Virus record (IMG/VR): IMGVR_UViG_3300017917_001336
Coordinates: 83,568-147,567 of that record
From: a virus
Reading direction: 5' to 3' (one strand)
Length of the DNA: 64,000 nt
Notes under the pieces: generated by a model
Told to the model about the DNA's origin: nothing
The model's input: the letters and a program-made list of their open reading frames with translations, nothing else
Database searches by the model: none
Part shown: positions 2,155-29,605 of the stretch, one piece after another
How positions within the stretch are numbered: the stretch's first letter is position 1
Layout of the letters: each line of letters opens with the position of its first letter
Translations under genes and position numbers: made by a program

Positions 2155-2260
2155 ACTTTGGCAATTCTTAAAAAACCCGTTTACGTATATTCAAAATCGT
2201 AGATTGCTCAAGAAACGACTCGACGAGTTGCGTAAAAGAGATCCGTTTATATACAAATGA
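2147..2260 (+). CDS. 37-aa peptide (MYKLWQF...RKRDPFIYK) coupled to primase and carbamoyltransferase
   Basis: AAGGA RBS; overlaps the primase stop and has an ATGA overlap with the next gene; below the ORF-track cutoff. Confidence 0.6.
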   Translation: MYKLWQFLKNPFTYIQNRRLLKKRLDELRKRDPFIYK

Positions 2261-3222: not shown

Positions 3223-4653
3223 ATGAAACAAAATACAGATTACGGTTACGATATTCAAAAAGTATATTTAGAAATGATGCTTGCAGATGCAGCAACATTT
3301 GCTCGATGTCAAACAATTTTTGATCCTAGCTTGTTTGATAGAAAATTGCAACTAGGCGCAGAGTTTATCAATGAATATATTAAAGAACATTCAGTGATGC
3401 CAACTGAAGAGATTGTAAATGCTGCTACCAGCATGAATTTTAAAGTTCCACACGATTTAAGAGAAGAGCACTTTGATTGGCTATTAAACGATTTTGAAAC
3501 TTTTACAAGGCACAAAGGTCTTGAACGTGCTATCCTTGAATCAGCAGACATGTTAGAAAAAGGTGAGTACGGAACTGTAGAAGAAAAAATTAAAAAAGCA
3601 GTACAAGTTGGTCTAACCAAAGACATGGGCACTGATTACTGGGCTGATCCTAGGGCCCGTCTAATGAAAATCAAAGATAAGAATGGTCAAATTAGTACAG
3701 GCTGGAAGTCAGTTGATGACAAACTATTTGGCGGAATGAATCGAGGCGAATTGAATATTTTTGCGGCAGCTTCGGGTGGCGGTAAGTCTTTGTTCCTTGC
3801 AAACTTAGGTGTTAACTGGGCAATGGCAGGATTAAATGTAATTTACTTAACACTTGAACTTAGTGAAGAACTAGTGTCAATGCGTGTTGATTCGATGATT
3901 ACAGGAATTCCAACTAGAGAAATTTTTAAGAGTCTTGATGATGTAGAAATGAAAGTTAAAATGATTGGTAAAAAATCTGGTAGCTTTCAAGTCAAGTACA
4001 TGCCAAGCGGTAAAACAGCAAACGATATTAGAAGTTATCTAAAAGAATATGAAATTAGAATGGGCCAAAAGTGTGATGTATTGTTAGTTGACTACTTAGA
4101 CTTGTTAATGCCAATGAGTAAGAAGATTTCAGCAGAAAACTTGTTTATTAAAGACAAGTATGTCTCTGAAGAATTGCGTAACTTAGCAATGGAAAAGAAT
4201 TGTATTTTTGTAACTGCGGCACAGTTAAATCGCGGAGCAGTTGAAGAAGTAGAATTTGATCATTCACACATTTCAGGTGGACTATCTAAAATCCAAACCG
4301 CAGATAATGTAATTGGTATCTTTACTAGTCGTGCAATGCGTGAACGTGGACGTTATCAAATTCAATTTATGAAAACACGTAGTTCTAGTGGTGTTGGACA
4401 AAAAATTGATTTAGAATTTAACATTGATACTTTAAGAATTACTGATCTTGAACAAGAAGATAGTTATGGCAATAGTAGCGTACAAAGTGCAGGTAGCACA
4501 CTATTGGCTAGTATTAAAAATCGAGCAACCGTTGATGCCCAAACTGGAGAAATTGATCCAAACAGTTTAACACCAGTACCAAAAATTAAAGCACAAGTTG
4601 AATCGAGTAAACTAAGAGAATTACTTAACAATTTACCATCCGACGATCTTTGA
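3223..4653 (+). CDS. dnaB: replicative helicase (DnaB/T4 gp41-like)
   Basis: Walker A AASGGGKS, TLELS, VDYLDL, AQLNR, KTRSS. Confidence 0.92.
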   Translation: MKQNTDYGYDIQKVYLEMMLADAATFARCQTIFDPSLFDRKLQLGAEFINEYIKEHSVMPTEEIVNAATSMNFKVPHDLREEHFDWLLNDFETFTRHKGLERAILESADMLEKGEYGTVEEKIKKAVQVGLTKDMGTDYWADPRARLMKIKDKNGQISTGWKSVDDKLFGGMNRGELNIFAAASGGGKSLFLANLGVNWAMAGLNVIYLTLELSEELVSMRVDSMITGIPTREIFKSLDDVEMKVKMIGKKSGSFQVKYMPSGKTANDIRSYLKEYEIRMGQKCDVLLVDYLDLLMPMSKKISAENLFIKDKYVSEELRNLAMEKNCIFVTAAQLNRGAVEEVEFDHSHISGGLSKIQTADNVIGIFTSRAMRERGRYQIQFMKTRSSSGVGQKIDLEFNIDTLRITDLEQEDSYGNSSVQSAGSTLLASIKNRATVDAQTGEIDPNSLTPVPKIKAQVESSKLRELLNNLPSDDL

Positions 4654-8002: not shown

Positions 8003-10002
8003 ACGCCAGCTAACTTACGCACACGAGTTAGCTCTGCGCTTTCTTTAAATCCGTCTATAGTATTTGATGCACTTGCCGGGGTATTAAAGTTTTGTGTTGG
8101 CGATTGCGGAGGAGTAGTTCCGTATGCATGGTCTACTAGCATGTCAATAAACTGTTCAACAGTATTGCCAAATGCCTTGTTAGCCGCCACTGCAGCCGCA
8201 AAACCTGTACCAGCACCGATGATAGCCGCCGGAATAACACCTATAACAGTTGGACTGGCCACAGTACCTGCCAAGGCCGCGCCAAATATAGCAGCCACAA
8301 TCTCAAGACCAAAACGTGCAATAGGTTGTGCAATAATCTTAGTAACTTCAGCACGATACTGATCCTGTGTCATCTTCTTAGGATCAAGTGCTTGATACTT
8401 GGCAACAGCATCGCTTACTTCAACGTAAATTGAATAACCTAACAACAACCAACCACCTGCTTTAAATGCAGCACCAGTAGCGGCTTTGGCATTTGTTACA
8501 GCAGTCTTAGGTGCTTGTGCTACTTTAGCGGCAAACTCATCAGCGGCTAAATCTAAACGTGTGGTGCCAATTTTAACCGAGTTCCAAGTATTTGGTAATA
8601 AACTTTTTTGAATACTGTCTTGTGGAATGCCTGTTAAGAATGCACGGAATCGAGCACTCCAAGATGCTTTACCAGCGGCACTGGATAAATCAACTGGACT
8701 GGTTTGTTGTTGGCTAACAAACTTAACAGCTTTGTTAAACAGTTTACGAAACTCTGGATCTTTAAGTGCAGAACTAAGTGCTTCCTTTTGAAACTCGGGC
8801 GCACTAGTTTTTAAACTACTACGCAAAAAATTTCTAAATTCTTTGTCCGCTACTTCACCATTGGGAAATGACTTGGGCATTTTGTTAGGGTCAACAAACT
8901 CAGCAGTAATGTTTTGATCCAAGAAGCTTTTTTCAATCATAGCAACAATTTGCTCGTTAGACATCTTGGGTTTAACATCCCGGGCCATTTGTTCCACGGC
9001 TTGTTGTAATCGTGAGTTAAGTTCTACAGGGTCACGCCAATAAGCATCACCATGATAGTCTGTGGGTATCTTAGGATTAGCTGGCGCCGCACCGGTCTTT
9101 AAACGATCACGTAACACAGCCATTTCTTGACGATGTGCTGTTAGTCGTTCGCTAGCTGACTTAATAGCAGCTTGATCACCACTGCGAGTAGCGGCAGTTA
9201 GTGTTTTTTGTAATTCAGGTTCTTGTTTGACTAATTCAGCTAAACGATCGCGATTTTCTACAGCTTGTCGTAAAAATGAGTTAGGAATAGTCTTAGGATC
9301 AGTACCCGGAGGAATAGCATCTAGTTGGGCCTTAAACTTAGCACGGTCGGCGTTTGCATTAACTCGACGCTGTGTGTCAGCCATGCTCATACCTTGTAGT
9401 GCGTTATAATGGTGATTTAATTCGTGAGCAATAGTAGAACGCATACCCTTTAAATCACTAGTAACACGATTGGTAACCCAAAGTCTGTTTGCACGTGGCC
9501 CCGGAGAATTAATATTCATGTTGCCCGTGATAGTTTCTGTGGGTATGTTAATTTGTAGTTTATGCCCTTGCTTTTCTAACCAACTAGCCATGCGGGGATC
9601 TTGGCGGAAATCACCCATGCTTGGGCGAGCATTAGCCTTGTCTGATCGGGCCAAGTCCCAGGGATCAGCAACCTTTGGATTATACTGATAGCCCGTCTTA
9701 GGATCAGCAAACCATGTACTAGCACTAGCACGGGGCATGTCAATAGTATATCCCCCATCGGGTAACTGTTTAAACTTAGCCATGGGCTCAAAGTTAACTT
9801 GCCCAGACTGCGCTAATATCTGAACTTGTGGACTTTTAAAATCTGCAGGATTAATACCCATGTCTGTTAAATTAACACGAGACCCGTCTTTGACTTTACC
9901 GGGGTTGGCATTTAAGTAGTCAATGATCTTTTGACTAATTAGTGATAGTTCCTGTTGTGCAACAGCATCTTCTTGTACTAATTGAATATATTCGCGGAGC
10001 AT
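7999..10002 (-). CDS. late protein with a Zn-metallopeptidase motif and hydrophobic C-terminal helices (probable internal/ejected virion protein)
   Basis: IAHELNHH plus distal E (YWRDPVE); Gly/Ala-rich hydrophobic segments; TAAATA upstream on minus (about 10008-10013). Confidence 0.55.
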   Translation of the reverse strand: MLREYIQLVQEDAVAQQELSLISQKIIDYLNANPGKVKDGSRVNLTDMGINPADFKSPQVQILAQSGQVNFEPMAKFKQLPDGGYTIDMPRASASTWFADPKTGYQYNPKVADPWDLARSDKANARPSMGDFRQDPRMASWLEKQGHKLQINIPTETITGNMNINSPGPRANRLWVTNRVTSDLKGMRSTIAHELNHHYNALQGMSMADTQRRVNANADRAKFKAQLDAIPPGTDPKTIPNSFLRQAVENRDRLAELVKQEPELQKTLTAATRSGDQAAIKSASERLTAHRQEMAVLRDRLKTGAAPANPKIPTDYHGDAYWRDPVELNSRLQQAVEQMARDVKPKMSNEQIVAMIEKSFLDQNITAEFVDPNKMPKSFPNGEVADKEFRNFLRSSLKTSAPEFQKEALSSALKDPEFRKLFNKAVKFVSQQQTSPVDLSSAAGKASWSARFRAFLTGIPQDSIQKSLLPNTWNSVKIGTTRLDLAADEFAAKVAQAPKTAVTNAKAATGAAFKAGGWLLLGYSIYVEVSDAVAKYQALDPKKMTQDQYRAEVTKIIAQPIARFGLEIVAAIFGAALAGTVASPTVIGVIPAAIIGAGTGFAAAVAANKAFGNTVEQFIDMLVDHAYGTTPPQSPTQNFNTPASASNTIDGFKESAELTRVRKLAGV

Positions 10003-11297: not shown

Positions 11298-12203
11298 TTA
11301 GCGGCTGTTACGCATACACGTTACTTCTACTACGCTACGCCAGTTGCTGGGCATACTAACACGAATGTCCGCAACCTTAAGCACCATACGCAGGCTTAGC
11401 TCTCGCATACGCTCTGCATTGTTATTAATGTAGTCTACTACTTCTTGCTTGTCCTCATCAGTTAGCTTGTAGTCATCGAGCATACCGCACTCGTTAACTA
11501 CCTGCTTGATACGCAACAGCTTCTCACGGGTAGTATCAATAGTCAGATCCAAATAGTGACAACGTGACTCCAATGCTTCCAAGTGATCGCGCAGCTTCTT
11601 TGACTTAACGTGATCGAACTTGATGTTGCTAATAAAGATAGCACCACCGTGGAAGTCGAAACTGTTGGGCACACCTTCTTGTCTAAGCAAACGGCTGTCC
11701 GTGTTCCAATGGATAGTACGCTTCTTACCTGAGTCTAGCGCAGCCTTTAGGATGTTCAAGCTAAGGTCATCTAGCAGTACAGAGTCGCAGTCATCAAACA
11801 CTAGGATGCATTTACGATCGCTGAACTCGTAGAGCTTTTTGTACAAGCCAATGGCACTCATTGCGCCCTTGACTACTTCGTATTTCTTCAGCTTGGTATC
11901 GTTGGCTACATTAGCAAACACATCATGCTTGCCCAGTACCCGTTCTACACCAAAGCTCTTACCAACACCCGGAGGGCCAGTTACGATCATAGCACGAACA
12001 TCACCCTTCTTTACAGCACGGGTCATGTCTTCTAGAATCTGAAAACGTTGGCCCAAACGTTCCATAATACTTTCATCGGACTCGGCTTTGAGCTGGCGCT
12101 CTTTTTCTTTAATATAGTCCTTGTCCTGCTCCAAGCTGGCTGTAGTGCCTGCTGAGCTCTTTTTACCTTTGGGCATGTCTGCTAGTGTCATTACTTTTGC
12201 CAT
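11298..12203 (-). CDS. AAA+ family ATPase
   Basis: Walker A GPPGVGKS, Walker B ILVFDDCD, sensor ISN, Arg finger ALESR. Confidence 0.85.
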   Translation of the reverse strand: MAKVMTLADMPKGKKSSAGTTASLEQDKDYIKEKERQLKAESDESIMERLGQRFQILEDMTRAVKKGDVRAMIVTGPPGVGKSFGVERVLGKHDVFANVANDTKLKKYEVVKGAMSAIGLYKKLYEFSDRKCILVFDDCDSVLLDDLSLNILKAALDSGKKRTIHWNTDSRLLRQEGVPNSFDFHGGAIFISNIKFDHVKSKKLRDHLEALESRCHYLDLTIDTTREKLLRIKQVVNECGMLDDYKLTDEDKQEVVDYINNNAERMRELSLRMVLKVADIRVSMPSNWRSVVEVTCMRNSR

Positions 12204-13636: not shown

Positions 13637-13713
13637 TGGCCTGCCCGGAGGGAATCGAACCCCCAACCTACGGCTTAGAAGGCCGTTGCTCTATCCGGTT
13701 GAGCTACGGGCAG
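13637..13713 (-). tRNA. tRNA-Arg(TCT)
   Basis: Cloverleaf CTGCCCG...CGGGCAGG-CCA, anticodon loop CT-TCT-AA, GGTTCGA T-arm. Confidence 0.95.
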
Positions 13714-13718
13714 ATGAA

Positions 13719-13796
<78 letters not shown>

Positions 13797-14530: not shown

Positions 14531-14599
14531 TGTAATACCTCTTTCTGTGTGTGGTTTAAGTTTATATGCCAGTTTCCTTAGCATGTTTCTATTATAAGT

Positions 14600-14869
14600 T
14601 CATTTGCTCGGTTTGTCAACCGTTTTGTGCCTCTTTTGGGCAACCAATTTCTCTTTCTCTTTGCCAAATTCCTTTTCTGAGTAGTATTCAATCAAATGGT
14701 GTCTAATCATTAGGGTTAGATCCATTCCGGAATCATCTGGGCAGATAAATCGGACTGGACAGTATCCCCAACTCCTCGTTTGGACAAACTGGTAATACCA
14801 GCGCCTATGATCCTTGTTGTAAGGATCAAAGGCTACCAGCGGGCGTGAATAATATTCTAACTTACTCAC
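14600..14869 (-). CDS. hypothetical protein
   Basis: 89-aa ORF, WGYCPVRF. Confidence 0.6.
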   Translation of the reverse strand: MSKLEYYSRPLVAFDPYNKDHRRWYYQFVQTRSWGYCPVRFICPDDSGMDLTLMIRHHLIEYYSEKEFGKEKEKLVAQKRHKTVDKPSK

Positions 14870-14919
14870 GATCCTCTATCCATAGACGCATAATTGCATC
14901 CAATTGGTCCATCGCTTCT

Positions 14920-15555
14920 TTACTTGCTACCATGTGGTTCCAATCCTCTCTTTTCAATGCCATCTTCATACCATTCCTGGACTTCGTCCATTTCCTCTGC
15001 TTCATACTCTGCCATTGACTCACTGATACCAAACATCTCGTCCAGTTCCTCGCCAATGGTGTCTACAACAGTCTTAGAGTTGGTGCCACCGTAATCGTAG
15101 CACTCGTCGTAACCGTCTTCGAACTTGCCCACATAAGCCATACCTGGCTCGTAGTAGTAAGCACGAACTTCAAAGCCTTGCTCAACCAACTCTTCGTAAA
15201 CACCCATAGGAGGGCTCCACGCAGAGTCAAATCCAAATTCAATAGTGTTGTCTTCTACAACAACAGCCTCAGGGTCATAAGCATCAACATCCCATTTGGT
15301 GCCCCAGCGGCCTACGCAGAAGTCATACCAGTTGCCATAGCCATACTTCTCGACATTTTCAGCAGTCTTACGAACCAATTCAATTTGGTCCGGGTTGTCA
15401 TCGCTACCCACGCAACCTGCTACAATGTTCAGGTCCTCTGGAACAGGAATGACGTGTTTAAGGAATCTGCCTTCGCGGACAGCACTCGCAAGCGCCTCTA
15501 TTTTAGCAGAGTCAGTGTGTGAAATTGTGACGTTGTTATTGCACCAATTAGGCAT
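14920..15555 (-). CDS. MPNWC-start protein (DUF1281/YubB ferredoxin-like family)
   Basis: MPNWCNN, NWYDFCVGRWGTKWD, FDSAWSPP, YYYEPGMAYVG. Confidence 0.75.
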   Translation of the reverse strand: MPNWCNNNVTISHTDSAKIEALASAVREGRFLKHVIPVPEDLNIVAGCVGSDDNPDQIELVRKTAENVEKYGYGNWYDFCVGRWGTKWDVDAYDPEAVVVEDNTIEFGFDSAWSPPMGVYEELVEQGFEVRAYYYEPGMAYVGKFEDGYDECYDYGGTNSKTVVDTIGEELDEMFGISESMAEYEAEEMDEVQEWYEDGIEKRGLEPHGSK

Positions 15556-15573
15556 AGTTCGCTCCTATGTTGT

Positions 15574-15837
15574 TTAAGAAAATTCGTAAAAGGTTACGCT
15601 AGGGTCAATGCTCATCAACTCGCGGGCTGCACGGCGCAGATAAGTTGCACGGTCCTGCAGGGCCTTACCACGCAGTTCGCCATCGCAAGTAAGGTTCTCT
15701 GGGCTAAGGTCCGCATCCAAAGAGTTCGCAATCTTCTGGCGGTCCTCTGCGTTGAGCAGGCTCAAGGCCTTGCTACCAAAGATAGCACCCCAACGGTTCT
15801 TTTGCTCTACATAGTGTTCGATAGTTGAAATATTCAT
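15574..15837 (-). CDS. hypothetical early protein (LSPENLTCDGE)
   Basis: Promoter and GGAGCGAA RBS. Confidence 0.75.
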   Translation of the reverse strand: MNISTIEHYVEQKNRWGAIFGSKALSLLNAEDRQKIANSLDADLSPENLTCDGELRGKALQDRATYLRRAARELMSIDPSVTFYEFS

Positions 15838-15883
15838 TTTCGCTCCTGTTTATTTACTATAACTCTATTGTAAGCTCAAATGA

Positions 15884-16129
15884 TCACTTTGTCAACCGGA
15901 ACTGATCAATAACCCTATTAGCTTCAGGGAAATCGGTGTTGTTTTTCTGCAACATTTCCTCGTCCACGCACTCCATAATCATTAGACGCTGGAGCAGTTC
16001 TGCTTGGTGTTGCTGGGCAGGGTCGAGCGCATCGTACCAGTTGAGGAAGTCCTCTTCGGTTTCAAGTTCGTTCCACATGAAGTCCAGCATCTCCACTTGT
16101 TCTTCAGTTAGGTTGTTGATCGTAGGCAT
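15884..16129 (-). CDS. acidic hypothetical protein
   Basis: 81-aa ORF in the operon. Confidence 0.65.
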   Translation of the reverse strand: MPTINNLTEEQVEMLDFMWNELETEEDFLNWYDALDPAQQHQAELLQRLMIMECVDEEMLQKNNTDFPEANRVIDQFRLTK

Positions 16130-16130
16130 A

Positions 16131-16307
16131 TTAGGAGTTGATAGTTGCGTTAGGGCTGTATTCCTCGTCTACACCGCACCCGTTGGACTCAATCCAATCG
16201 TATACGATATCCACAGGACAGCCTAGTTGGACAGCAATACTCTTAGGGCCATAGCCCTCAATGTAGAGCTGTTCAATGTCGTATGCTAGGTCTTTCAGTT
16301 TAGTCAT
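16131..16307 (-). CDS. 58-aa putative helix-turn-helix protein
   Basis: LYIEGYGPKSIAVQLGCPVDIVYDWI HTH pattern; GAGGAG RBS; below the ORF-track cutoff. Confidence 0.55.
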   Translation of the reverse strand: MTKLKDLAYDIEQLYIEGYGPKSIAVQLGCPVDIVYDWIESNGCGVDEEYSPNATINS

Positions 16308-16512
16308 CGTAGGCCTCCTCGCCCAATTCAGTTACTTCTTCTTCCAGCACCATTACGTCAATGATGCGAGCTGTTTGATCTTCGTTGCTTACGCCCTGGA
16401 ACGCAGTACGAAAGGATTGATACTCACCGAGGAAGTCATAGACATCCATTCGGTCCCAGCCCTCTGGCACTTCAATCTCTTGCCGGAGGATAGTTGTTAC
16501 ATAGGCTTTCAT
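16300..16512 (-). CDS. hypothetical protein
   Basis: ATGA overlap, AAGGAGG RBS. Confidence 0.7.
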   Translation of the reverse strand: MKAYVTTILRQEIEVPEGWDRMDVYDFLGEYQSFRTAFQGVSNEDQTARIIDVMVLEEEVTELGEEAYDD

Positions 16513-16991
16513 GCTGCCTCCTTCTCTGCTTGGAACGCAAATGCTTCTTCCAGTGTAAGGAACTCGCCGTCAGTGCCGTAAAAGTCAACAAACCAAGTAG
16601 CCTTGCCGTTTACATTGCGCAGGATGTATTCGTACTCCTCACGCTGGTGCTCTCGTGCATATTCCTCAAAGTTCTTAAAACGCTTGGCACCCACACCCTC
16701 TTCGCCGCGATCGCGACCGTAGAAGGTAGTAATTTGTTGGCGTGCTTCTTGCTCTGCTTGGTACTCAGGGGTACCGTACTTGGCTTGTATGTCAAAGCTG
16801 TGCTTCTCGCCAATCTCAGGGCCCAGCGAGCTAACATCGCCCAAGTCCATAAGCTTCTGCACTTTGAAGGGATCCATGTAGTGATCGCGCAGGATAACAC
16901 CGTTGTGATCTAAGTAACCGTCCCAGTGGCAGTAGATCTGATCCACAGTACCGTCTGCGTATTCAATTGCAATAGTTGATCGTGTAGCCAT
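16509..16991 (-). CDS. conserved phage hypothetical protein (MATRS..IYCHWDGY)
   Basis: Promoter and GGAGCGAA RBS. Confidence 0.8.
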   Translation of the reverse strand: MATRSTIAIEYADGTVDQIYCHWDGYLDHNGVILRDHYMDPFKVQKLMDLGDVSSLGPEIGEKHSFDIQAKYGTPEYQAEQEARQQITTFYGRDRGEEGVGAKRFKNFEEYAREHQREEYEYILRNVNGKATWFVDFYGTDGEFLTLEEAFAFQAEKEAA

Positions 16992-17047
16992 TTGTTTCGC
17001 TCCTGTGTGTGTTTAAGCCTTAATTATACAACCTTTTGGGTCCGCTG

Positions 17048-17284
17048 TCAAGCCACTTCTTTGTAGACTTTGTAGCCGTAGATCGCCAGCTTGCGGATAG
17101 CCGATTGGATCTCGCCGTAGGTCTCGTTGAGGTCTTCTAGGCACTTCTTAGCATCTTTGATAGTGTCTGCGGTGCAGGTCTCGCCTGAGTAGATGTGTCT
17201 GCAGTCGTAGTAACGATCGCCATCGTCAGTGACCAGTTGGTAAGTGCCAAAGGTCTTGTACATTGTCATCTCGCCTGTTTTCAT
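17048..17284 (-). CDS. hypothetical protein
   Basis: AAGGAGCGA RBS places the start at 17284. Confidence 0.7.
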   Translation of the reverse strand: MKTGEMTMYKTFGTYQLVTDDGDRYYDCRHIYSGETCTADTIKDAKKCLEDLNETYGEIQSAIRKLAIYGYKVYKEVA

Positions 17285-17299
17285 CGCTCGCTCCTTGTT

Positions 17300-17497
17300 G
17301 ATTAATCTGTTGGGGAACTCCGGACTAGCCGCTAGCACCGTCTGCTAGATCGTCTGCCTTCGTCATTACCGCCTACCTTCTCCGCCGCTTCTCCGAGCTT
17401 ACGCCCTGTTTCATGTGCTTAGATTGAGCGTGACCGTCGCCACTGTCCTAACCCTCTAAGCACCTAACGGTGTAGGTAACCCCTAATTCCTTACTAT
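17300..17497 (-). ncRNA. candidate structured RNA / long 5' leader
   Basis: About 200 nt non-coding after promoter 17504-17532; stems GTGCTTAGA/TCTAAGCAC, CTAGCA/TGCTAG, TTACC/GGTAA. Confidence 0.45.
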
Positions 17498-17500
17498 GTG

Positions 17501-17758
17501 TTAATTATAAGCCCAAACCTCAACCTTGTCAACCTCTGCAATAACCCTACTGCCTGTATGGGTAATGTAAACTTTAGTACTATCTGTACCGCCTTCAACT
17601 AGGAAGACAGCCATGTAGACGAATTGCCCACCGTTGCTTATGCCCAGGAACTTGCACGAGCTGAACGCAGGGCCCTTATAGCCATTCTCGCGGGCTAGGC
17701 TGTTGAGCGTAGGCCCATTGTAGGAGATAAGAGTTTTTAGTGTCTCTGGGGTAATCAT
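17501..17758 (-). CDS. hypothetical protein
   Basis: GAGGAGCC RBS. Confidence 0.65.
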   Translation of the reverse strand: MITPETLKTLISYNGPTLNSLARENGYKGPAFSSCKFLGISNGGQFVYMAVFLVEGGTDSTKVYITHTGSRVIAEVDKVEVWAYN

Positions 17759-17907
17759 TTAGGCTCCTCAATTTTTAAGTTAGACAACACGGCTTCTAGT
17801 GTGTCGTAAGCCATTTGCCAACGATCCCCAGGGATGTTATAGATCTGACTAATAGCATCGTTGAGAGTAGCTAGAGCCTCTAGCTTCTTGTAGTCTTGCT
17901 CAGTCAT
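17755..17907 (-). CDS. 50-aa hypothetical protein
   Basis: ATGA overlaps at both ends. Confidence 0.6.
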   Translation of the reverse strand: MTEQDYKKLEALATLNDAISQIYNIPGDRWQMAYDTLEAVLSNLKIEEPK

Positions 17908-18224
17908 TCTGCATCCTCCTCTACTGCTTCGTCTTCCAAGCAGTCAAAGCAGTCCTCTACACGATTGTGTCCCTGATAGATAGTGTAGTCGCCAATTTGT
18001 GTTTTACATTCTTTGTCAATGTACTCGAAGCCGCCGTAGTACTCTAAGCTACGGGCATTGTCGCTAACAATAACACGCTCGCCTCTGTCAATGTACACAC
18101 GGCCGCAACGGATGTCTAGTCCCAGCTTGTCAGCACTCACCCGTTCCATACCCGCTACAAAACGCTCAATGCCGTAGCTAACCTCGTCTACAACATCCAA
18201 AATGCTAGTGCAGTCTTTAAACAT
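17904..18224 (-). CDS. hypothetical early protein (LEYYGGFEY)
   Basis: Promoter and GGAGCGAA RBS. Confidence 0.75.
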   Translation of the reverse strand: MFKDCTSILDVVDEVSYGIERFVAGMERVSADKLGLDIRCGRVYIDRGERVIVSDNARSLEYYGGFEYIDKECKTQIGDYTIYQGHNRVEDCFDCLEDEAVEEDAE

Positions 18225-18280
18225 AGTTTCGCTCCTTTTGTTTAACTTAGCCTATAGTATAGCACCGAGGGCCCAAACTG

Positions 18281-18517
18281 TCAACCCCATGCTTTCAATA
18301 ACCCTGCACAGCACACAAGTATTCCCGCAAGGTTGACAAGGATTTGTGCTTTGTTGCGTACCCTATAGCTCCACATAAAATAAAAGCTACCACCGCATAG
18401 CCCTGCTACTAAATTGTAGGGGTACAGTTGGGGGTAAAAAGACATTAATATGTACATTGTGAGGAGGCACATAGTGCCTGCCCACTGTAGCATATTATTA
18501 AACATTGTCTGCCTCAA
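18281..18517 (-). CDS. small membrane protein (about 3 TM)
   Basis: Hydrophobic segments; true start may be 18505. Confidence 0.6.
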   Translation of the reverse strand: MRQTMFNNMLQWAGTMCLLTMYILMSFYPQLYPYNLVAGLCGGSFYFMWSYRVRNKAQILVNLAGILVCCAGLLKAWG

Positions 18518-18683
18518 ATTCCATTACGTCACAGCGCAAGTCCTCTACAATGTCCTCAATCCTGCAATGCGTCTCATAGCACACGTCACTGTCACCCAGT
18601 GCATCTTGTATAAGTGCGTCTGCGTCCTCTAGCAATTCCATTGCCTCGCGCAGTTTAGCTGCTTTTTGTTTTGCTGTTAGCAT
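18498..18683 (-). CDS. hypothetical early protein (proline-free)
   Basis: Promoter and RBS; inside the GA/GG-free tract. Confidence 0.7.
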   Translation of the reverse strand: MLTAKQKAAKLREAMELLEDADALIQDALGDSDVCYETHCRIEDIVEDLRCDVMEFEADNV

Positions 18684-18761
18684 AGTGTCGCTCCTTGCTG
18701 TTTAAGTGTTTTAATTATAGCGCACATAGCCCAATCTGTCAACCATGTGCGCTTGTGTTAA

Positions 18762-19094
18762 TTAAAACGCCCCTTCAAAAATTTGTTGTGTTTCGTATGC
18801 ATACAAATCGCCTGTAGCCTTTTCGCGTACAGTAATCCAATCCTGTGCATAAAAGCGTTCTTGCTCATATGCGCTACCCATAAAAAAGTAACAGTCTACA
18901 GTCTCAAACTCAATCTCGTCTGTAGCAAATTGTTTAACAATGTATTCACCACATTCATCAGCGTCTAACGCATACCCGTGTTCACCAACGCTACCTAGTA
19001 CATTAGCAATCCAGCGTTCCTGCTGCTCTTGCGTGTCCTCTGTGTATGTAATGTCTTGCAGTTTGCACAATTTTACAAAATTACGCTTTTCCAT
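18762..19094 (-). CDS. acidic hypothetical early protein (proline-free)
   Basis: GGAGCGAA RBS; inside the GA/GG-free tract. Confidence 0.7.
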   Translation of the reverse strand: MEKRNFVKLCKLQDITYTEDTQEQQERWIANVLGSVGEHGYALDADECGEYIVKQFATDEIEFETVDCYFFMGSAYEQERFYAQDWITVREKATGDLYAYETQQIFEGAF

Positions 19095-19160
19095 TTTTCG
19101 CTCCTTCTAATTACAGTACAGCTAGTATAGCACAGCTAGCCTAGCTGTGCTGTGCTTACA

Positions 19161-19484
19161 TTACGCCTCCATGCTAGCAAGCTCGTCCTCTTGCATACCT
19201 TGTTCTGTAAAGCTAACAGCAAAGCCTACAGCGTCACTAATAGCAGTTTCAAACCCACTATCTGTATAAATGTCCCATGTGCTGTTGTGTTGCACATTTA
19301 CCATTGTATAAAATTCGCTGTCGTAAATGTTATTAATAATAGTAATACCTGTTACATTAATAACACGCCCTGCCTCACAGCCCCACAAGCCGTCGCCTGC
19401 TGTAGTAACTGTAAATGCACACATAAATTCTGTAATAATACAGTCTACGTCACGCTCGTAACGCACAAGCACTAATTTTTGCAT
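19161..19484 (-). CDS. hypothetical early protein (GDGLWG, YTDSGF, FTEQGMQ; proline-free)
   Basis: Promoter and RBS; inside the GA/GG-free tract. Confidence 0.75.
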   Translation of the reverse strand: MQKLVLVRYERDVDCIITEFMCAFTVTTAGDGLWGCEAGRVINVTGITIINNIYDSEFYTMVNVQHNSTWDIYTDSGFETAISDAVGFAVSFTEQGMQEDELASMEA

Positions 19485-19567
19485 ACATCGCTCCTTTTGC
19501 TACTTAAAAAACAATTATAGCACAGCAAGCCCAAAATGTCAACTTGCTGTGCTAATAACCCTACAGT

Positions 19568-19798
19568 TTAGTCTATTATTTGCACATTAGCACAGCGCAA
19601 AGTCTGCATAGCAGTATTAATGCTTTTTAATACTTCTGCTTGTGCATTTACATAATCTGTACTACAAATATCTCCTGTAACTAGTACAGCATTTTTAACA
19701 GTTACTACATTATGCTTATCAAAACTAAAAATTACGCGATAAGTGTTAAGACGCTTGTTTACTACTACTTTAGCTAACACAGTACAATTTGTTTGCAT
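19568..19798 (-). CDS. hypothetical early protein (proline-free)
   Basis: Promoter and GGAGCG RBS. Confidence 0.7.
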   Translation of the reverse strand: MQTNCTVLAKVVVNKRLNTYRVIFSFDKHNVVTVKNAVLVTGDICSTDYVNAQAEVLKSINTAMQTLRCANVQIID

Positions 19799-19846
19799 AC
19801 ACGCTCCTTCTAAGTGTTTGTATTATAGCGCAGCTAGCCCAAAATG

Positions 19847-20086
19847 TCAAATCCCTACAGCTTGTAGGGTCTTTAGTTCTTGTTGCAATTCTGCCACACG
19901 CTGTTTTTGCAGTTGTGCAATAAACTTGACTTTTTTAGTTTCGATGTCTTTGCGGAACTTATTAATGCTTACATTTAGCATATAAGAGGTTTGTCCGTAG
20001 CTTTGCAGCTTATTTTGTGTTTTGTACACATGAGCACGAGCGGCAGACATAGCGTATGCGTTTACAGTATTAGCGTATTGACCCAT
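19847..20086 (-). CDS. hypothetical early protein
   Basis: AAAGGA RBS after promoter 20108-20136 places the start at 20086. Confidence 0.65.
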   Translation of the reverse strand: MGQYANTVNAYAMSAARAHVYKTQNKLQSYGQTSYMLNVSINKFRKDIETKKVKFIAQLQKQRVAELQQELKTLQAVGI

Positions 20087-20104
20087 CTTTGTTCCTTTTA
20101 AAAA

Positions 20105-20320
20105 TGTATTATAGCACACTTTGGACCCGCTGTCAACAACCCTAACGACCGTAGGGTCTCTCATGATCCATTGACGCCTAACCCAAAAGGCAGTATAATA
20201 CATGTATTCGAACAAAGGGGGGTGGACGTCGAGGCTGGGCGTCAGTTTCTGAGCCTGAAATAAGAAAAAGTGTGGCATCTGCGCCACACTCTAGAATACC
20301 CTGGTTGACAGCAGGGTTAC
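20105..20320. repeat. divergent-promoter/small-RNA module, copy 1
   Basis: Back-to-back sigma70 promoters, TTCGAACA, GGTGGACGTCGAGG, TGT-N12-ACA box, hairpin with GTTGACA loop; homologous to 22026-22265. Confidence 0.65.
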
Positions 20321-20580
20321 ATGCTCCAGTATGCCTCGCTGGATGGGCTACAGTATCTGGGCGTATCAAATCGTTCCATGTACTCTTTACCACCCATCAT
20401 GTTGATCCGCTTGACCATAGTCTCATGGATTTCATAGCGGAACCCTTGACTGGCTCGCCACGTATGCTTGACAGTATGCTCTAGGGTCTTGAGGTCTGTA
20501 GTATCATAGTCACTATAATGCACTCGGCGCTCGCCTGCCTTGGTGCGAGCATCCTTTTTGTATATGATAACGGTATACAT
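20317..20580 (-). CDS. hypothetical protein (TPRYCSPSSEAYWSM C-terminus)
   Basis: TAATG coupling, GGAGG RBS. Confidence 0.7.
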   Translation of the reverse strand: MYTVIIYKKDARTKAGERRVHYSDYDTTDLKTLEHTVKHTWRASQGFRYEIHETMVKRINMMGGKEYMERFDTPRYCSPSSEAYWSM

Positions 20581-20858
20581 TATGCAGCCTCCAACATTGA
20601 CAGTGGAACGGAGTAGACCATGTTCATGCTAGGGATATGCACATCGGCCTTCTTGATCTTGATCTTGCGGATCGTTCCCACTACGGTACCACCCAACTTG
20701 GCATGGGTCAGTTTAACCTTATCGCCACTGTGGAAGGTGCAGGCGTTAACCCGGGCAGTCTTTGAACGGGCAAAGGCCACAGCGTCTACAATACTTTGCA
20801 GATCCTGCGCAGACCACGCACCCGAAATAATTGCACGATTGATAGTACCAATATCCAT
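20580..20858 (-). CDS. hypothetical protein, possible SH3/KOW-like C-terminus
   Basis: Promoter and GGAGCG RBS; FHSGDKVKL..GTIRKIKIK. Confidence 0.65.
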   Translation of the reverse strand: MDIGTINRAIISGAWSAQDLQSIVDAVAFARSKTARVNACTFHSGDKVKLTHAKLGGTVVGTIRKIKIKKADVHIPSMNMVYSVPLSMLEAA

Positions 20859-20937
20859 TTCACGCTCCTTTTTGTCTAAGTGTTTCTATTATATGCTCAA
20901 ACGCACCCGCTGTCAACCTACTAAGCAGCGGGGCCTA

Positions 20938-21642
20938 TTATGCAGCTACAGCGATTGGAATCATACGGCGAACGAACCCAGTGGTGTCCTTCTTAGCACG
21001 ACCCTTAGCCTTAAGCCCTGCGATGCAACCCTTAGGGTCCAAAAAGCGCAGGTCAGTGTCGTCTGCATTAATTACAGGACGGCCCATGTAAGAGTCTGGG
21101 AGCTTGTCAAAGACAGCAGCCACGTTCATACCTGCACTCACTGCCTTTTGTACGTCTGCTTCGTTACCGTCTGCAGCTGAGAACGTCAAGTGATAGTTGG
21201 GCAGGTGTGCTACCTTGCGTCCAAGCACCTTAGTATAGTCATAGAACTGTACATTGGGGAACTTCTCAATGATACCGTACTTCTCCCAAGCCAAGTCCGA
21301 TGTACCGTTAAGGCGGAACACGGGTGTCAAACCCAGCTTCGCAGACTGTTTGATGCCCAGCTTGATGTCCTTCTCCAGCTGAGCCATAAATGCATCACGC
21401 TGCTCAAAGAACATCCTAGTCTTGCGAATGCGAGCCTGCTGGATCATGTTGGTGTTTTCACCGCGCTTGAACATACCACCGCGCCCGGCAGTATTCAAAC
21501 AGGCAGCGGTACAGCCTGCGGTGCGCTTAGGGCAAGTCTCCTTACCGGACAGCGTCGCAGGAGCAAGATGCAGAATAAAGCTAAGATAGCCCAATTTTGC
21601 ACCCTTTTGGATCTTGGGATTTGCAGTACTTAGAAGTTTCAT
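20938..21642 (-). CDS. gp88-like protein (Cys-triad, radical-SAM-like)
   Basis: CPKRTAGCTAACLNTAGRG, FRLNGTSD, QFYDYTK, NYHLTFS, DLRFLD, GLKAKG. Confidence 0.7.
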   Translation of the reverse strand: MKLLSTANPKIQKGAKLGYLSFILHLAPATLSGKETCPKRTAGCTAACLNTAGRGGMFKRGENTNMIQQARIRKTRMFFEQRDAFMAQLEKDIKLGIKQSAKLGLTPVFRLNGTSDLAWEKYGIIEKFPNVQFYDYTKVLGRKVAHLPNYHLTFSAADGNEADVQKAVSAGMNVAAVFDKLPDSYMGRPVINADDTDLRFLDPKGCIAGLKAKGRAKKDTTGFVRRMIPIAVAA

Positions 21643-21698
21643 GTTCGCTCCATGTTCGTTTAAGTTAGCCTATAGTATAGCAAGAATTAATAACCCTG

Positions 21699-22022
21699 TC
21701 AACCGTCGGTGTATTGGTCGTTGAGCGAGGGTTGATGCTGCTTGACCCATGCCCGTTCCCAAGCATAAGCTTCAGCCCGCCCACGTATGACAGCCAGTAC
21801 TTCGTGTTCCCAGTCTGTCCAAGCACCAGCACGGATATATTCGTATACAGTCCACGCCTGCTGTTCGTGACGAGCCCGGCTAATATGCTTACGCCAACGC
21901 TCTGCCACTGCCTTAGGTACTGTACGGGTGCCCTTACGGGTCAAGCCCACGTATACATTGCCTTCATGCATAGCAGCGTAGATAACATAGTTTGAATCTT
22001 TACGAGCAGTTCTTTTTGTCAT
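21699..22022 (-). CDS. GIY-YIG family nuclease-like protein
   Basis: YVIY...VYVGLT, RWRKH, conserved E and C-terminal LN; start after promoter 22029-22057. Confidence 0.6.
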   Translation of the reverse strand: MTKRTARKDSNYVIYAAMHEGNVYVGLTRKGTRTVPKAVAERWRKHISRARHEQQAWTVYEYIRAGAWTDWEHEVLAVIRGRAEAYAWERAWVKQHQPSLNDQYTDG

Positions 22023-22025
22023 AGT

Positions 22026-22265
22026 CGTATTATAGCATTCCGAGCCCAAACTGTCAACCACAATAACCCTACAGCTGACTCGGGTATTTTTGCCCCGAGT
22101 TGACAGCCTGCCCAAAATGCAGTATAATTTGGGCATAGGTTCGAACAGCTACACTGGGGATGGACGGCGAGGGTGCGCAGGTGATTCTAAGTTAGTAAGT
22201 GCCAACTTAGCCCGTGGTTAAAATACAACAAACTAGAAAAACCCGGTTGACAAAACGGGTTTTTG
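22026..22265. repeat. divergent-promoter/small-RNA module, copy 2
   Basis: Promoters 22029-22057(-) and 22100-22128(+), TTCGAACA, GATGGACGGCGAGG, box 22213-22230, hairpin with GTTGACA loop. Confidence 0.65.
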
Positions 22266-22334
22266 GGCTGGGTGTCTCGGCCCGGCCGAGACCGTCTCGG
22301 CCCCTTTTTCTCAAAAACCATTCCGAACCGCCGC

Positions 22335-22529
22335 CTAATTTTGAATGGGTTTTTCTATGAACTTGCAAGCGTCATATTGATTATCAAATATTTCATACTC
22401 GCAACTGACATCGTTATATTTGAATATATGTAAATTCCTAGTGGCCATGCACATGCTGATAGCTATATTATAGTCTTTACCTGCTACATGTACGTGTGCT
22501 AAATGCACTATAGTATTAGGGGTCATCAT
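22335..22529 (-). CDS. hypothetical protein
   Basis: 64-aa ORF after TAAATA on minus. Confidence 0.45.
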   Translation of the reverse strand: MMTPNTIVHLAHVHVAGKDYNIAISMCMATRNLHIFKYNDVSCEYEIFDNQYDACKFIEKPIQN

Positions 22530-28489: not shown

Positions 28490-28778
28490 AAAGAAATTGC
28501 TCACTGATCGATCAGGTAACTTACAAGAACAAATTCTAGAAGAGAAAGCAAAAGAACTTGCTGACGAGATGGACGCTGAAGTTTTGCGAGGTATGCTATG
28601 TGAACTTGGATGGCATCAAGTTGTTATAGCACCAGTGACGTGGGAAACTGGTGATAGAATCGATTTGTGGGTAACAAAAACAATTAAAGGAAGGCATTGG
28701 AATCGTGGTCTTGTTTGGTTGTTTGAAGACGATAAAGATGCTATGTGGTTTAAAATGAGGTGGATGTCAAATGAGTGA
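28482..28778 (+). CDS. hypothetical protein, F-x-L-R-W family
   Basis: WLFEDDKDAMWFKMRW. Confidence 0.7.
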   Translation: MLKKKLLTDRSGNLQEQILEEKAKELADEMDAEVLRGMLCELGWHQVVIAPVTWETGDRIDLWVTKTIKGRHWNRGLVWLFEDDKDAMWFKMRWMSNE

Positions 28779-29181
28779 ATCAGCAGAATTAGAACCGTGG
28801 CAACAACGTGCTTTAGATAAAATGAAGTCGTTTAAAGGCAAAGGTGTTGTACAAATTACAGGCCGTAATGCCGGTAAGAGTCATTGGAATAGTGTTGCTG
28901 TAAAACGGCTGTTTGATGACATTTACAGTCGTCCAATTGAAGCACTAATTTTCGATGTAGGAACAGTATACGGTGCTAGGTATTATACTGTTGAACCTAT
29001 TGGCGGTAATTGGCCAGAGATGGAACATTGGTGTTATGCAACGTTTGGTGACAGCGGAGACAATATGTGGGGTGAGAAAAAAGCACCTAAACCTTCTGAG
29101 CGTTGGTATATGAATAACCGAAAGTTTTGGTTCCGTAATGAAAAAGATCGCGATTGGTTTGTGATAAGGTGGAACGCATGA
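28771..29181 (+). CDS. hypothetical protein, F-x-L-R-W family
   Basis: EMEHWCYATFG; FWFRNEKDRDWFVIRW. Confidence 0.7.
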   Translation: MSESAELEPWQQRALDKMKSFKGKGVVQITGRNAGKSHWNSVAVKRLFDDIYSRPIEALIFDVGTVYGARYYTVEPIGGNWPEMEHWCYATFGDSGDNMWGEKKAPKPSERWYMNNRKFWFRNEKDRDWFVIRWNA

Positions 29182-29378
29182 TTATAGATAAAAGTGTATA
29201 CTGGAATCGTGTTGTTGATCATTACTACGATGACATTCATTGGGTAGATGGTGCTCCACGCAATATCTACGATTGGTTAGAAACAGAGTTTACTATAACA
29301 TCTGATACAGGAAGCTCAGTTTTAGAATTCAAAGATGCAAGTAAGGCAACATTCTTTGTAATGAGGTTTGGTTCATGA
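29178..29378 (+). CDS. hypothetical protein, F-x-L-R-W family
   Basis: LEFKDASKATFFVMRFGS. Confidence 0.65.
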   Translation: MIIDKSVYWNRVVDHYYDDIHWVDGAPRNIYDWLETEFTITSDTGSSVLEFKDASKATFFVMRFGS

Positions 29379-29605
29379 TTACACAAGAACGCAAAAGCAA
29401 GTATAAGCACAAAGTAATGGTAGATAGCGGCACTGACAGCGTATCCTTTAAGGAGATGCGTGAATGGTGCGAGAAGAGTTTTGGCCCAGGCGGCCGAAGT
29501 AAGAAGCTACGCTGGCGTGTAGGTTGGACTGACAGTATTGATACATTTTATTTTAAAAGCGGCAAAGATGCTATGATGTTTACTTTACGGTGGAGTCATG
29601 CCTAA
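29375..29605 (+). CDS. hypothetical protein, F-x-L-R-W family
   Basis: EMREWCEKSFG; FYFKSGKDAMMFTLRWS. Confidence 0.7.
   Translation: MITQERKSKYKHKVMVDSGTDSVSFKEMREWCEKSFGPGGRSKKLRWRVGWTDSIDTFYFKSGKDAMMFTLRWSHA

Follow-up and report, generated by a model that had tools for sequence, protein, structure and literature searches.

Several described systems bear on the locus presented here. In phage T4, the origins rely on middle promoters that depend on MotA, together with an AT-rich unwinding element, and are not known to have a conserved folded RNA or a G-rich core. RNA II of ColE1 is about 550 nt long; RNase H processes it, Pol I extends it, and the antisense RNA I controls it. The put element of phage HK022 consists of two stem-loops, spans about 70 nt and leads into long operons. 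Phage T5 has arrays of host-factor sites in non-coding regions, as well as an injection-stop region. Finally, phage-encoded small RNAs have been found by transcriptomics in jumbo phages (phiKZ-like phages and PA5oct). To our knowledge, hardly any replication origin of a jumbo phage has been mapped, and only a few conserved non-coding RNAs have been described in uncultured phages.

The window analysed here is a stretch of 64,000 nt, taken from a viral record of 147,567 bases. It contains two copies of an element that is, very probably, an early, host-transcribed gene for a structured small non-coding RNA, present as two old paralogues at fixed places. The parts of the two copies are the following:

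20171-20199, plus strand: promoter of copy 1, TTGACG-17-TATAAT, 11/12 match to sigma70; homologous promoters in the family
20204-20217, plus strand: predicted 5' end of the copy 1 RNA, with a TTCGAAC loop (20207-20213) within a short UGU/ACA hairpin
20218-20234, plus strand: G-rich core of copy 1, GGGG-G-TGGACG-T-CGAGG (model R1, 56.3 bits, E 6e-17)
20270-20289: hairpin GTGTGGC/GCCACAC, T-run on the minus strand, conserved in relative L232
20291-20296 and 22233-22238: CTAGAA, present in both copies
20299-20316: hairpin CCCTG/CAGGG, loop GTTGACAG (contains GTTGACA), abutting the stop codon of the leftward gene 20317-20580
22100-22128, plus strand: promoter of copy 2, TTGACA-17-TATAAT, 12/12 match to sigma70; homologous promoters in the family
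22136-22156, plus strand: predicted folded 5' domain of copy 2, TTCGAAC loop at 22140-22146, with the covariation mapped onto the sequence
22156-22172, plus strand: G-rich core of copy 2, GGGG-A-TGGACG-G-CGAGG (model R1, 68.5 bits, E 4e-21)
22187-22210, plus strand: hairpin P3 of copy 2, CTAAGTT/AACTTAG, 10-nt loop
22240-22264: bidirectional intrinsic terminator, AAAAACCCG, loop GTTGACAAAA (contains GTTGACA), CGGGTTTTT; this element also stands after the DnaA boxes of relative L173
22274-22309, plus strand: GTCTCGGCC / GGCCGAGAC / GTCTCGGCC, two mutually exclusive hairpins possible

The two rightward sigma70 promoters, already proposed in a first-pass annotation of this DNA, are real. Their 17-nt spacers contain CCCAAAAGGCAG in copy 1, likewise in relatives, and GCCCAAAATGCAG in copy 2. 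Copy 1 is the short-spacer 'type 1' form, and its RNA would start near 20206, judging by the distance to the -10 hexamer. The ordered architecture described in the same annotation (TTCGAAC, the G-run motif, CTAGAA and a hairpin with a GTTGACA loop) is indeed shared by the two copies, CTAGAA being present in both but not conserved family-wide. Other parts had been assigned to the module in error. The leftward promoters exist, with 12/12 matches at 20136-20108 and 22057-22029, but they are generic and do not belong to it; the ACCC..GGGT hairpin accompanies every leftward gene cassette in the 14-22 kb region; and the 18-bp TGT..ACA box, thought to be common to both copies, is found in copy 1 only, as the hairpin at 20270-20289. 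With its T-run on the minus strand, this hairpin serves the leftward genes as their intrinsic terminator; read on the plus strand, it falls within the copy 1 transcript or at its end. Both copies run antisense to the surrounding leftward early genes. Over the whole record, TGGACGNCGAGG was found at the two copies only, and GGGG-R-TGGACG-K-CGAGG occurs twice, once per copy. For this GGGG-anchored motif, with its 15 specified bases, hand arithmetic gives a chance expectation of about 3e-4 occurrences.

Pattern scans of viral and metagenome contigs yielded 95 distinct versions of the element, and it is known from more than 100 uncultured large phages. The motif order that had been proposed was kept in these relatives; its loss there would have spoken against the module, so that the outcome favours the finding. 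The same scans found no true member in cellular genomes or in cultured phages; 11 cellular pattern matches were rejected, as all had C or T at the R position and lay in GC-rich coding sequence. In near-complete jumbo genomes (300-330 kb) the element is present once or twice, and both paralogue types occupy fixed syntenic positions in a conserved gene order. The invariance of the core is partly circular, because the pattern used to retrieve most members has the core fixed in it. Loci were also retrieved independently of the motif, via a neighbouring GP88-like gene: 14 of 49 contain the element, and only TTCGAA and GGGRTGGAC are truly constant across them. Among 108 family promoters, 92 match the sigma70 consensus at 10 or more of 12 positions, 40 of them perfectly. 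At the nucleotide level, the 2.8-kb region showed no similarity to cultured phages, near or distant. The element was absent at blastn level from 50,697 cultured-phage records, where the 45-nt core gave chance matches only, and likewise from PA5oct, XacN1 and Atu_ph07. Neither the motif string nor phage origins with DnaA boxes or R-loops brought up anything relevant in a literature search.

The 5' part of the predicted RNA appears to fold. In copy 2, helix P1 pairs 22136-22138 with 22149-22151, helix P2 pairs 22146-22148 with 22154-22156, and the two cross. Compared to permuted arms, the pairing of the P1 arms had a z of about 8-9 (0 of 1000 permutations as good). The covariation score was 0.252, versus 0.109 +/- 0.011 in shuffles, none of which reached it (0/500). 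Among the independently retrieved loci, each of the three P2 pairs shows changes on both sides; a CG to GC change was seen in 5 sequences, and 89% of cells are paired. As two short helices around TTCGAA covary, C-G/G-C swaps included, we infer that a folded single strand is under selection; the crossing of the helices suggests a pseudoknot or alternative states. The helices emerged only with position-specific tests and mutual information: RNAalifold predicted no structure on a MAFFT alignment, and a position-free hairpin test was not significant (3.99 vs 3.82 +/- 0.11). Near-pairs did not discriminate the strand of the fold (8 G-T vs 6 A-C), and single-sequence folds of the two window transcripts were unremarkable (z of -1.4 and +0.3). 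An intramolecular G-quadruplex, judged from the letters, would be weak, with two-layer tracts only.

Known RNA families did not account for the element. With Rfam 15, only two tRNAs reached the gathering score in the whole window; 20000-22500 and 11 other members, when scanned permissively, gave only chance-level hits (E of 0.35 or more). ARAGORN found no tRNA or tmRNA at the element, its only predictions in the window being tRNA-Arg and tRNA-Met at 13.6-13.8 kb. A tRNA or tmRNA identity was rejected; the UUCGAA loop is T-loop-like in sequence only. A riboswitch was not retained either: there is usually no same-strand gene downstream, and a U-run hairpin overlaps the element in a subset only. 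The core might alternatively encode the start of a tiny peptide, M-D-G/V-E-G/A, and the R position is always A or G, hence an ATG or GTG, followed by conserved first codons. We give this hardly any credence. The absence of an ORF behind the rightward promoters, noted from the start, was confirmed, the frame from R-TG having 13 and 11 codons in the window copies; across the family, it ranges from 6 to 181 codons. There is no conservation past residue 5, all three codon positions are equally fixed, and the first G of the G-run pairs in P2, where it swaps to C along with its partner. Moreover, there is no usable Shine-Dalgarno site, because the G-run touches the start codon with zero spacing. The tiny ORF (MDGEG) was rejected on the grounds that its frame is not conserved. 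What is found is what is generally expected of a small non-coding RNA: its own conserved promoter, covarying helices, an unconserved frame, and a terminator, at 22240-22264 and in minimal relatives. The small RNA reading of the first-pass annotation is thus well supported.

Downstream of the core, the family is variable. The terminator at 22240-22264 is likely to be the 3' end of the copy 2 RNA, which would then be about 130 nt long. Beyond it, the second of the two hairpins possible at 22274-22309 precedes CCCTTTTTCTC and forms a second plus-strand terminator. GGTTGACA is enriched downstream of the element (20 of 97), and P3-type hairpins, GTTAGT..ACTAAC, recur among many relatives, with a compensating change in one of them (L187). 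In minimal relatives such as L085, L185, L247 and L154, fold and core are followed directly by a terminator, as expected of a free-standing small RNA. Complementarity was also seen between promoter spacers and downstream segments; most likely it reflects the GCCCAAA spacer motif common to all early promoters.

In part of the family, the downstream region carries repeat arrays. Within the 300 nt downstream (+0..300), the density of DnaA boxes is 4.76 per kb, versus 0.32 upstream and 0.26 in far flanks, an enrichment of 15-18 times. At least two boxes were found at 23 of 96 elements. Arrays of 4-9 consensus TTATCCACA boxes, 11 or 22 nt apart and in opposed sub-arrays, are present in 23 relatives. 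The boxes lie between core and terminator, inside the transcription unit, at five or more different positions and orientations relative to the core. More generally, 31 of 94 elements have at least three copies of a 9-mer, versus 2 of 190 controls, and about two thirds of the members are without an obvious repeat array. In a complete genome of 322 kb, one copy is followed by a run of ATACTC-type repeats, which number about a dozen by eye. AT content reaches 60-70% in several relatives at some 250-400 nt past the arrays, which is not specific; no adjacent AT-rich 13-mers or DnaA-trios were recognised at relatives' arrays. Near the window copies there is no DnaA box, and the 147-kb record holds no box cluster anywhere; the repeats of copy 2 amount to GTCTCGGCC twice plus one inverted copy.

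The phage genes include a primase, a DnaB-like helicase and an AAA+ protein, whose gene (11298-12203) is a candidate for the initiator. In four genomes the helicase gene is 6-20 kb from the element, and the primase gene is also 6-20 kb distant. By their helicase (51% identity), PA5oct-like phages are the nearest cultured relatives. Five related records, of which just one is complete, yielded no gene for RNase H (PF00075) or PolA (PF00476); host enzymes could serve. This bears on an R-loop of the ColE1 kind, promoted by the G-run, which had been part of the origin proposal and for which we found no support beyond the short core: G-richness is confined to about 17 nt, and GC skew over the 100 nt after the core averages 0.04, with 61% of members positive. 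An inflection of GC skew, suggested as an origin marker, is of no help, since skew follows transcription and gene direction and locates no origin.

As for the function of the RNA, a tie to the phage replication origin is our tentative proposal, with somewhat less than an even chance of being right. Very probably, host sigma70 RNA polymerase transcribes each copy early, antisense to the leftward early genes, and the 5' end of the RNA forms a compact fold, two short crossing helices around the UUCGAA loop. Next come a single-stranded GGGRUGGACG-rich segment and a variable region that differs between lineages, with a terminator at the end in many members. In the origin proposal, the transcription unit would both mark and serve the origin: strong early transcription would provide an RNA, and DNA opening beside arrays of initiator sites (host DnaA boxes in some lineages, private iterons in others) or hairpin-forming repeats, and the phage DnaB-type helicase and DnaG-type primase could be loaded there. 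The evidence is circumstantial and comes from relatives, with their DnaA boxes or iterons, one or two copies per genome, and primase and helicase genes; the window copies are without DnaA boxes. Because the arrays of the window phage are reduced to hairpins, the case for an origin in this phage rests on homology with those relatives. DnaA boxes and iterons may also gather there as in one of few non-coding gaps, or have another role. Nearly as likely is a free-standing, trans-acting, abundant early small RNA that binds or titrates a conserved host or phage factor via its 5' fold and GGGRUGGACG, the arrays being unrelated passengers in a non-coding gap that tolerates them. Such an RNA would agree with the minimal relatives, in which promoter, compact covarying fold and terminator make up the whole unit, with the core as the only part common to all lineages, with two sibling copies at conserved positions, and with the two thirds of members devoid of arrays. 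It leaves unexplained, however, the enrichment in DnaA boxes and their several independent positions inside the transcript. Furthermore, the antisense strand of the element itself was the only complementary target found in phage genomes (an 11-nt match in phage coding sequence was judged due to chance), and E. coli genomes have no similarity or complementarity to the core. Nor is there an obligatory protein neighbour: family 1 (GIY-YIG-like) accompanies the element at 31 of 76 loci, and family 3 (71 aa) at 29 of 90.

The conserved part always lies at about +1 to +45 of the predicted transcript, and both crossing helices covary. This would also suit an RNA acting in cis on its own polymerase, either as a put-type antiterminator or as a riboswitch-like gate, choosing between a stop at about 60 nt and read-through into repeats and antisense or rightward genes. 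Other features point the same way: the 3' end of the core and a U-run hairpin overlap in several members (L297, L298, L247 and L185), alternative hairpins are possible at 22274-22302, and a U-rich GGTTYT tract stands at a fixed distance from the core. We nevertheless consider a cis-acting RNA unlikely, as the window has no same-strand gene for about 1.8 kb after the element, the next gene is convergent in 19 of 24 scored loci, the early hairpin is not general (a strict terminator within 50 nt in only 3 of 94 elements), and no ligand or factor is indicated. There is an equally small chance that the folded 5' domain is a switch that gates origin firing, the polymerase stopping at about 60 nt or continuing into the region of DnaA boxes, iterons or hairpins. 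Still less probable is a role of the arrays at the DNA level and outside replication, such as DnaA titration, or anchoring or pausing of the entering genome, with the RNA gene merely adjacent. T5 offers a precedent, and many members without arrays are compatible with it. Yet the arrays lie within the transcription unit, between core and terminator, they recur at one locus in lineages with different array types, and the role of the RNA is not addressed.

The element is a previously undescribed RNA family. It is easily recognised. A host-consensus promoter and a covarying fold come together in it, joined in many lineages by textbook DnaA-box arrays. Should it mark the origin, hundreds of environmental phage genomes would gain a ready landmark, and host DnaA would prove to be recruited by large virulent phages that have their own helicase and primase. 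If the 5' domain is a switch, a conserved RNA element would gate the origin throughout a large clade of uncultured jumbo phages, and host DnaA sites and private initiator sites would be interchangeable modules behind it. If the RNA acts in trans, it is a widespread early phage product, whose cellular target is probably conserved. Either way, this new RNA family is open to in vitro testing without a cultured host.

Compared to the systems described above, the element is like T4 oriF (uvsY) and oriG (gene 34) in having a promoter with a short transcript to which a role at the origin is ascribed, in occurring as two similar copies per genome, and in belonging to a large virulent phage that encodes a helicase and a primase of its own. 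It differs by its sigma70 consensus promoters and conserved RNA fold, and has no sequence relation to them; no T4-type AT-rich unwinding element was identified after the promoter, where the GC-rich core is followed by sequence of about 50% AT. RNA II of ColE1/pBR322 likewise has a sigma70 promoter and is a structured transcript that includes a G-rich stretch; a DnaA box and hairpin loading sites downstream, on the displaced strand, are further common points. Unlike RNA II, the RNA would be about 60-130 nt long and often terminated, and the short G-rich stretch does not extend into a long G-rich hybrid region. In a non-systematic look at the promoter scan, we noted no opposing promoter for an RNA I-like antisense regulator within the first 100 nt. 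The likeness to HK022 put is a conserved folded RNA from the first tens of nt of a phage transcript; here, however, the fold is small, with crossing helices and a G-rich strand, it usually faces convergent genes, and no sequence or Rfam relation to put or other promoter-proximal RNAs was found. Like the small RNAs of jumbo phages, it is a non-coding RNA of large phages, but it is not one of those of PA5oct. Finally, the arrays of 23 relatives, with consensus boxes spaced by 11 or 22 nt, resemble the DnaA-box clusters of oriC-type origins. The window itself, without such a cluster, was not retained as an oriC-like origin. In contrast to oriC, the relatives' arrays lie inside a phage non-coding RNA gene that is predicted to be strongly transcribed.

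Two look-alike stretches, copy 1 (20105-20320) and copy 2 (22026-22265), lie within the 14-23 kb region of the window, which is filled with small leftward genes, each with its own perfect or near-perfect minus-strand sigma70 promoter. At least 10 of the leftward promoters in 14591-22057 (minus strand) match the consensus at 12/12, one per small leftward gene, while rightward promoters of comparable strength were found only at 20171-20199 (11/12) and 22100-22128 (12/12). The first-pass annotation was correct in its observation of a repeated order behind these two promoters: TTCGAAC, a G-run with TGGACG-N-CGAGG, hairpins, CTAGAA, and a hairpin with a GTTGACA loop. Indeed, the core motif is absent from the rest of the 147.6-kb record, and no ORF follows the promoters, as the frame starting at the A/GTG of the core has only 13 and 11 codons. 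On the other hand, the leftward promoter and the ACCC..GGGT hairpin, taken then as parts of the module, are common to every leftward cassette, and the copy 1 TGT..ACA box (20270-20289) serves the leftward genes as their intrinsic terminator. The hairpin at 20299-20316 adjoins the stop codon of gene 20317-20580.

The surrounding features are the following:
1150-2154, DnaG-like primase, replication module
2257-3204, carbamoyltransferase/TsaD-like protein, within the replication module
3223-4653, DnaB-like helicase, replication module
11298-12203, minus strand, AAA+ protein, separate from the primase and helicase genes, which could be a loader or an initiator
20938-21642, minus strand, GP88-family (PF17338) protein
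21699-22022, minus strand, 107-aa protein with a GIY-YIG nuclease domain only

The window covers the final 64 kb of the record, which, being 147.6 kb long at a completeness of 40% (CheckV), probably derives from a jumbo phage. Several other observations were made around the early-gene island. Nearly all leftward promoters in 14591-22057 have GCCCAAA (+ strand reading) in their spacer; sigma70 promoters do not usually conserve this part. Several have a (A)CCCTAC..GTAGGG(T) hairpin immediately in front of them, which makes a cassette of terminator and promoter. At the left edge of the island, tRNA-Arg(TCT) and tRNA-Met genes are direct neighbours (13637-13796, minus strand); tRNA genes are also found just past the element in two relative loci (L119, L250) and in G002, a complete 322-kb relative. 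In copy 2, past the first terminator of the RNA, GTCTCGGCC, GGCCGAGAC and GTCTCGGCC follow in succession at 22274-22309 and could form two 9-bp hairpins that exclude each other; a T-run comes after the second one only, an attenuator-like layout. Three 43-nt direct repeats at 28722-29594, some 410-420 nt apart and 60-72% identical to the reference copy, are probably ends that three small rightward genes, paralogous to one another, have in common.

Viral contigs were scanned with the pattern GGGGNTGGACGNCGAGG, which gave many chance matches; about 20 of the matches also had a TATAAT box, a correctly spaced TTCGAAC and hairpins of a similar kind downstream. A stricter pattern recovered 21 viral contigs, several of them 100-330 kb long, and at least 120 metagenome contigs, and yielded only chance matches in 185,579 cellular genomes. 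De-duplication left 95 distinct core sequences (alignment A2). The element is absent from cultured phages, including those nearest by helicase (PA5oct group, 51% identity) and by GP88-like protein (XacN1, 52%). No Rfam family matches it, and a literature search for the motif string returned nothing relevant. We conclude that the element is a new RNA family, found neither in Rfam nor in cultured phages, with a wide occurrence among large phages that are uncultured.

The core being fixed by the search pattern, its invariance among these members is partly circular. Therefore, 80 loci were fetched via the neighbouring GP88-like gene, and searched with a covariance model built from A2 (R1). Among the 49 loci whose 4-kb upstream flank was complete, 14 had the element, in every case antisense to the gene cluster, and a second copy was found downstream in 3 of 45. 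In these unbiased members, GGGRTGGAC and TTCGAA were constant, and the 3′ half of the core varied (GCGAGG, TCGAGG, TGGAGG, GCGGGG, TGGAGA and others).

We then asked whether the sense strand folds. RNAalifold detected no structure on the plain alignment. However, the bases immediately on either side of N-TTCGAAC-NG are complementary to their own partner much more often than to the partners of other members (z of ∼8-9, 0/1000 permutations as good), and mutual information singled out two helices, which lie in copy 2 as follows:
22136-38 with 22149-51, helix P1
22146-48 with 22154-56, helix P2
22156-22172, core

On A2, the inner pairs of P1 are paired in 47/48 and 46/58, with four pair types, and P2 is 93% paired, its middle pair being A-U 63, U-A 21, G-C 2 and C-G 1 times. 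The covariation score of P1 plus P2 is 0.252, versus 0.109 ± 0.011 for shuffles (0/500 as high) and at most 0.078 for slid controls. In the independent, GP88-fetched set, found with a model that did not include P2, all three P2 pairs underwent double changes, among them a C-G to G-C swap at the pair that joins the C of TTCGAAC to the G-run's first G. The two helices, P1 and P2, are mutually crossing, and represent a pseudoknot of very small size, with UUCGAA in the first loop, or else two alternative states; on geometric grounds the pseudoknot is possible only if P1 is ∼3 bp long. It is firmly established that the unit is conserved, promoter-driven and non-coding and that its sense strand folds, which supports the small-RNA alternative of the first-pass annotation. 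We treat the unit as a small-RNA gene, though displaced DNA might in principle adopt the fold, G-T versus A-C counts not discriminating between the two. In four type 1 paralogues (L074, L099, L206, L055), a long 3′ hairpin, CCCCCAGC..GCTGGGGG, lies at +40 to +110 after the core and covaries with GGCCCCC..GGGGGCC; it is missing from copy 1, hence the 3′ domain of the RNA is lineage-specific.

A sigma70 match of at least 10/12 lies within 130 nt upstream of 92 of 108 family members, perfect in 40; 81 members have a 17-nt spacer, and a CCAAAAG-type motif is common to the spacers. Three classes of spacing separate the -10 hexamer from the core (∼21, 27 and 50-66 nt), which places the beginning of the conserved part at or near the RNA 5′ end. 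A peptide gene was considered and rejected: the length of the M-D-G/V-E-G/A frame ranges from 6 to 181 codons, and its start lacks usable ribosome-binding spacing.

Gene order around the element is conserved among relatives. On the early-gene strand it reads: a 71-aa family, element type 2, the small GIY-YIG-domain protein, the GP88-family protein, two small proteins, element type 1 (at this position in only a handful of related loci), and further small proteins. The GIY-YIG and GP88-family proteins are the conserved divergent neighbours of copy 2, which is type 2; copy 1 is type 1, and the two are old paralogues, not a recent duplication. The GP88-like protein has 454 relatives among candidate stretches confirmed in IMG/VR, and others in XacN1, pelagiphages and mycobacteriophages. 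In 21 of 24 scored loci the gene upstream is divergent from the element, and in 19 of 24 the next downstream gene converges on it. Copy number in near-complete genomes is one or two: a single copy is present in a 331-kb genome (93% complete) and in one of 300 kb, two divergent copies separated by 14 kb in G002, which has terminal repeats, and two tandem copies in the present record. A third arrangement is seen on metagenome contig L195, where copies at 6620-6684 (+) and 8254-8317 (-) face each other, 1.6 kb apart. In four genomes, the helicase gene is 6-20 kb from the element.

What lies downstream of the core differs between lineages. In the 300 nt that follow the core, the density of DnaA boxes (at most one mismatch to TTATCCACA) is 4.76 per kb, against 0.32 upstream and 0.26 in the far flanks (710 kb). 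Two or more are present in 23 of 96 elements, most of these having five or more, spaced by 11 or 22 nt. Commonly a first sub-array has one orientation and a second the opposite one, so that two-box units form inverted repeats; in several members all boxes share one orientation. Depending on the lineage, the first box lies at +14/15/16, +37, +42-48 or +75, in differing orientations, which argues for a repeated functional association and against one inherited insertion. The boxes are bounded by the core on one side and the GTTGACA-loop terminator on the other, as in locus L173, hence are within the transcription unit. L161, L119, L137, L250 and ∼19 other loci, from uncultured phages with their own DnaB-type helicase, have 4-9 consensus boxes at +15 to +230, several with near-perfect inverted repeats of two-box units. 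In other lineages this position is occupied by private repeats (AGTAAGTGCTTACTAAC three times, AATACATAC five times, GGGTTTCGA, AAGAGGTTA), and at least 3 copies of a 9-mer are found in +0..300 in 31 of 94 elements, versus 2 of 190 control windows. In G002 (∼119,150-119,550, minus strand), about 12 (G/C/A)ATACTC repeats, counted by eye, directly follow one copy and precede a tRNA gene; the other copy, 14 kb off and oppositely oriented, is of the minimal kind, with a second promoter and an ORF after it. Minimal members (L085, L185, L247, L154) consist of the fold and core, with a terminator hairpin immediately after.

Given the enrichment of initiator-type arrays inside the unit, its copy number and the replication genes nearby, a role at a replication origin is the single most likely reading of its function, albeit a tentative one. 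The unit would act there by transcriptional activation, priming or DNA opening, with hairpins, DnaA boxes or iterons as possible loading sites. The origin idea of the first-pass annotation is plausible through the relatives, but unproven; its G-run R-loop mechanism found no support beyond the short core. Against the origin role, the window phage has no DnaA boxes near its copies and no cluster of them in the record, two thirds of members have no obvious array, minimal members resemble ordinary sRNA genes, G-richness ends after the core, and no RNase H or PolA gene was found in five related records. GC skew was uninformative on origin location. For these reasons a free-standing, trans-acting RNA is nearly as likely as the origin role, but a search of the phage genomes and E. 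coli found no target for it, and it leaves the arrays unexplained. The crossing helices P1/P2, and the U-run hairpins that overlap the core in some members, hint at a third, less likely option, a cis-acting gate on elongation. Finally, a rival explanation for the arrays only would be a role of the T5 injection-stop type, arrays of host-factor sites being known from non-coding DNA of T5.
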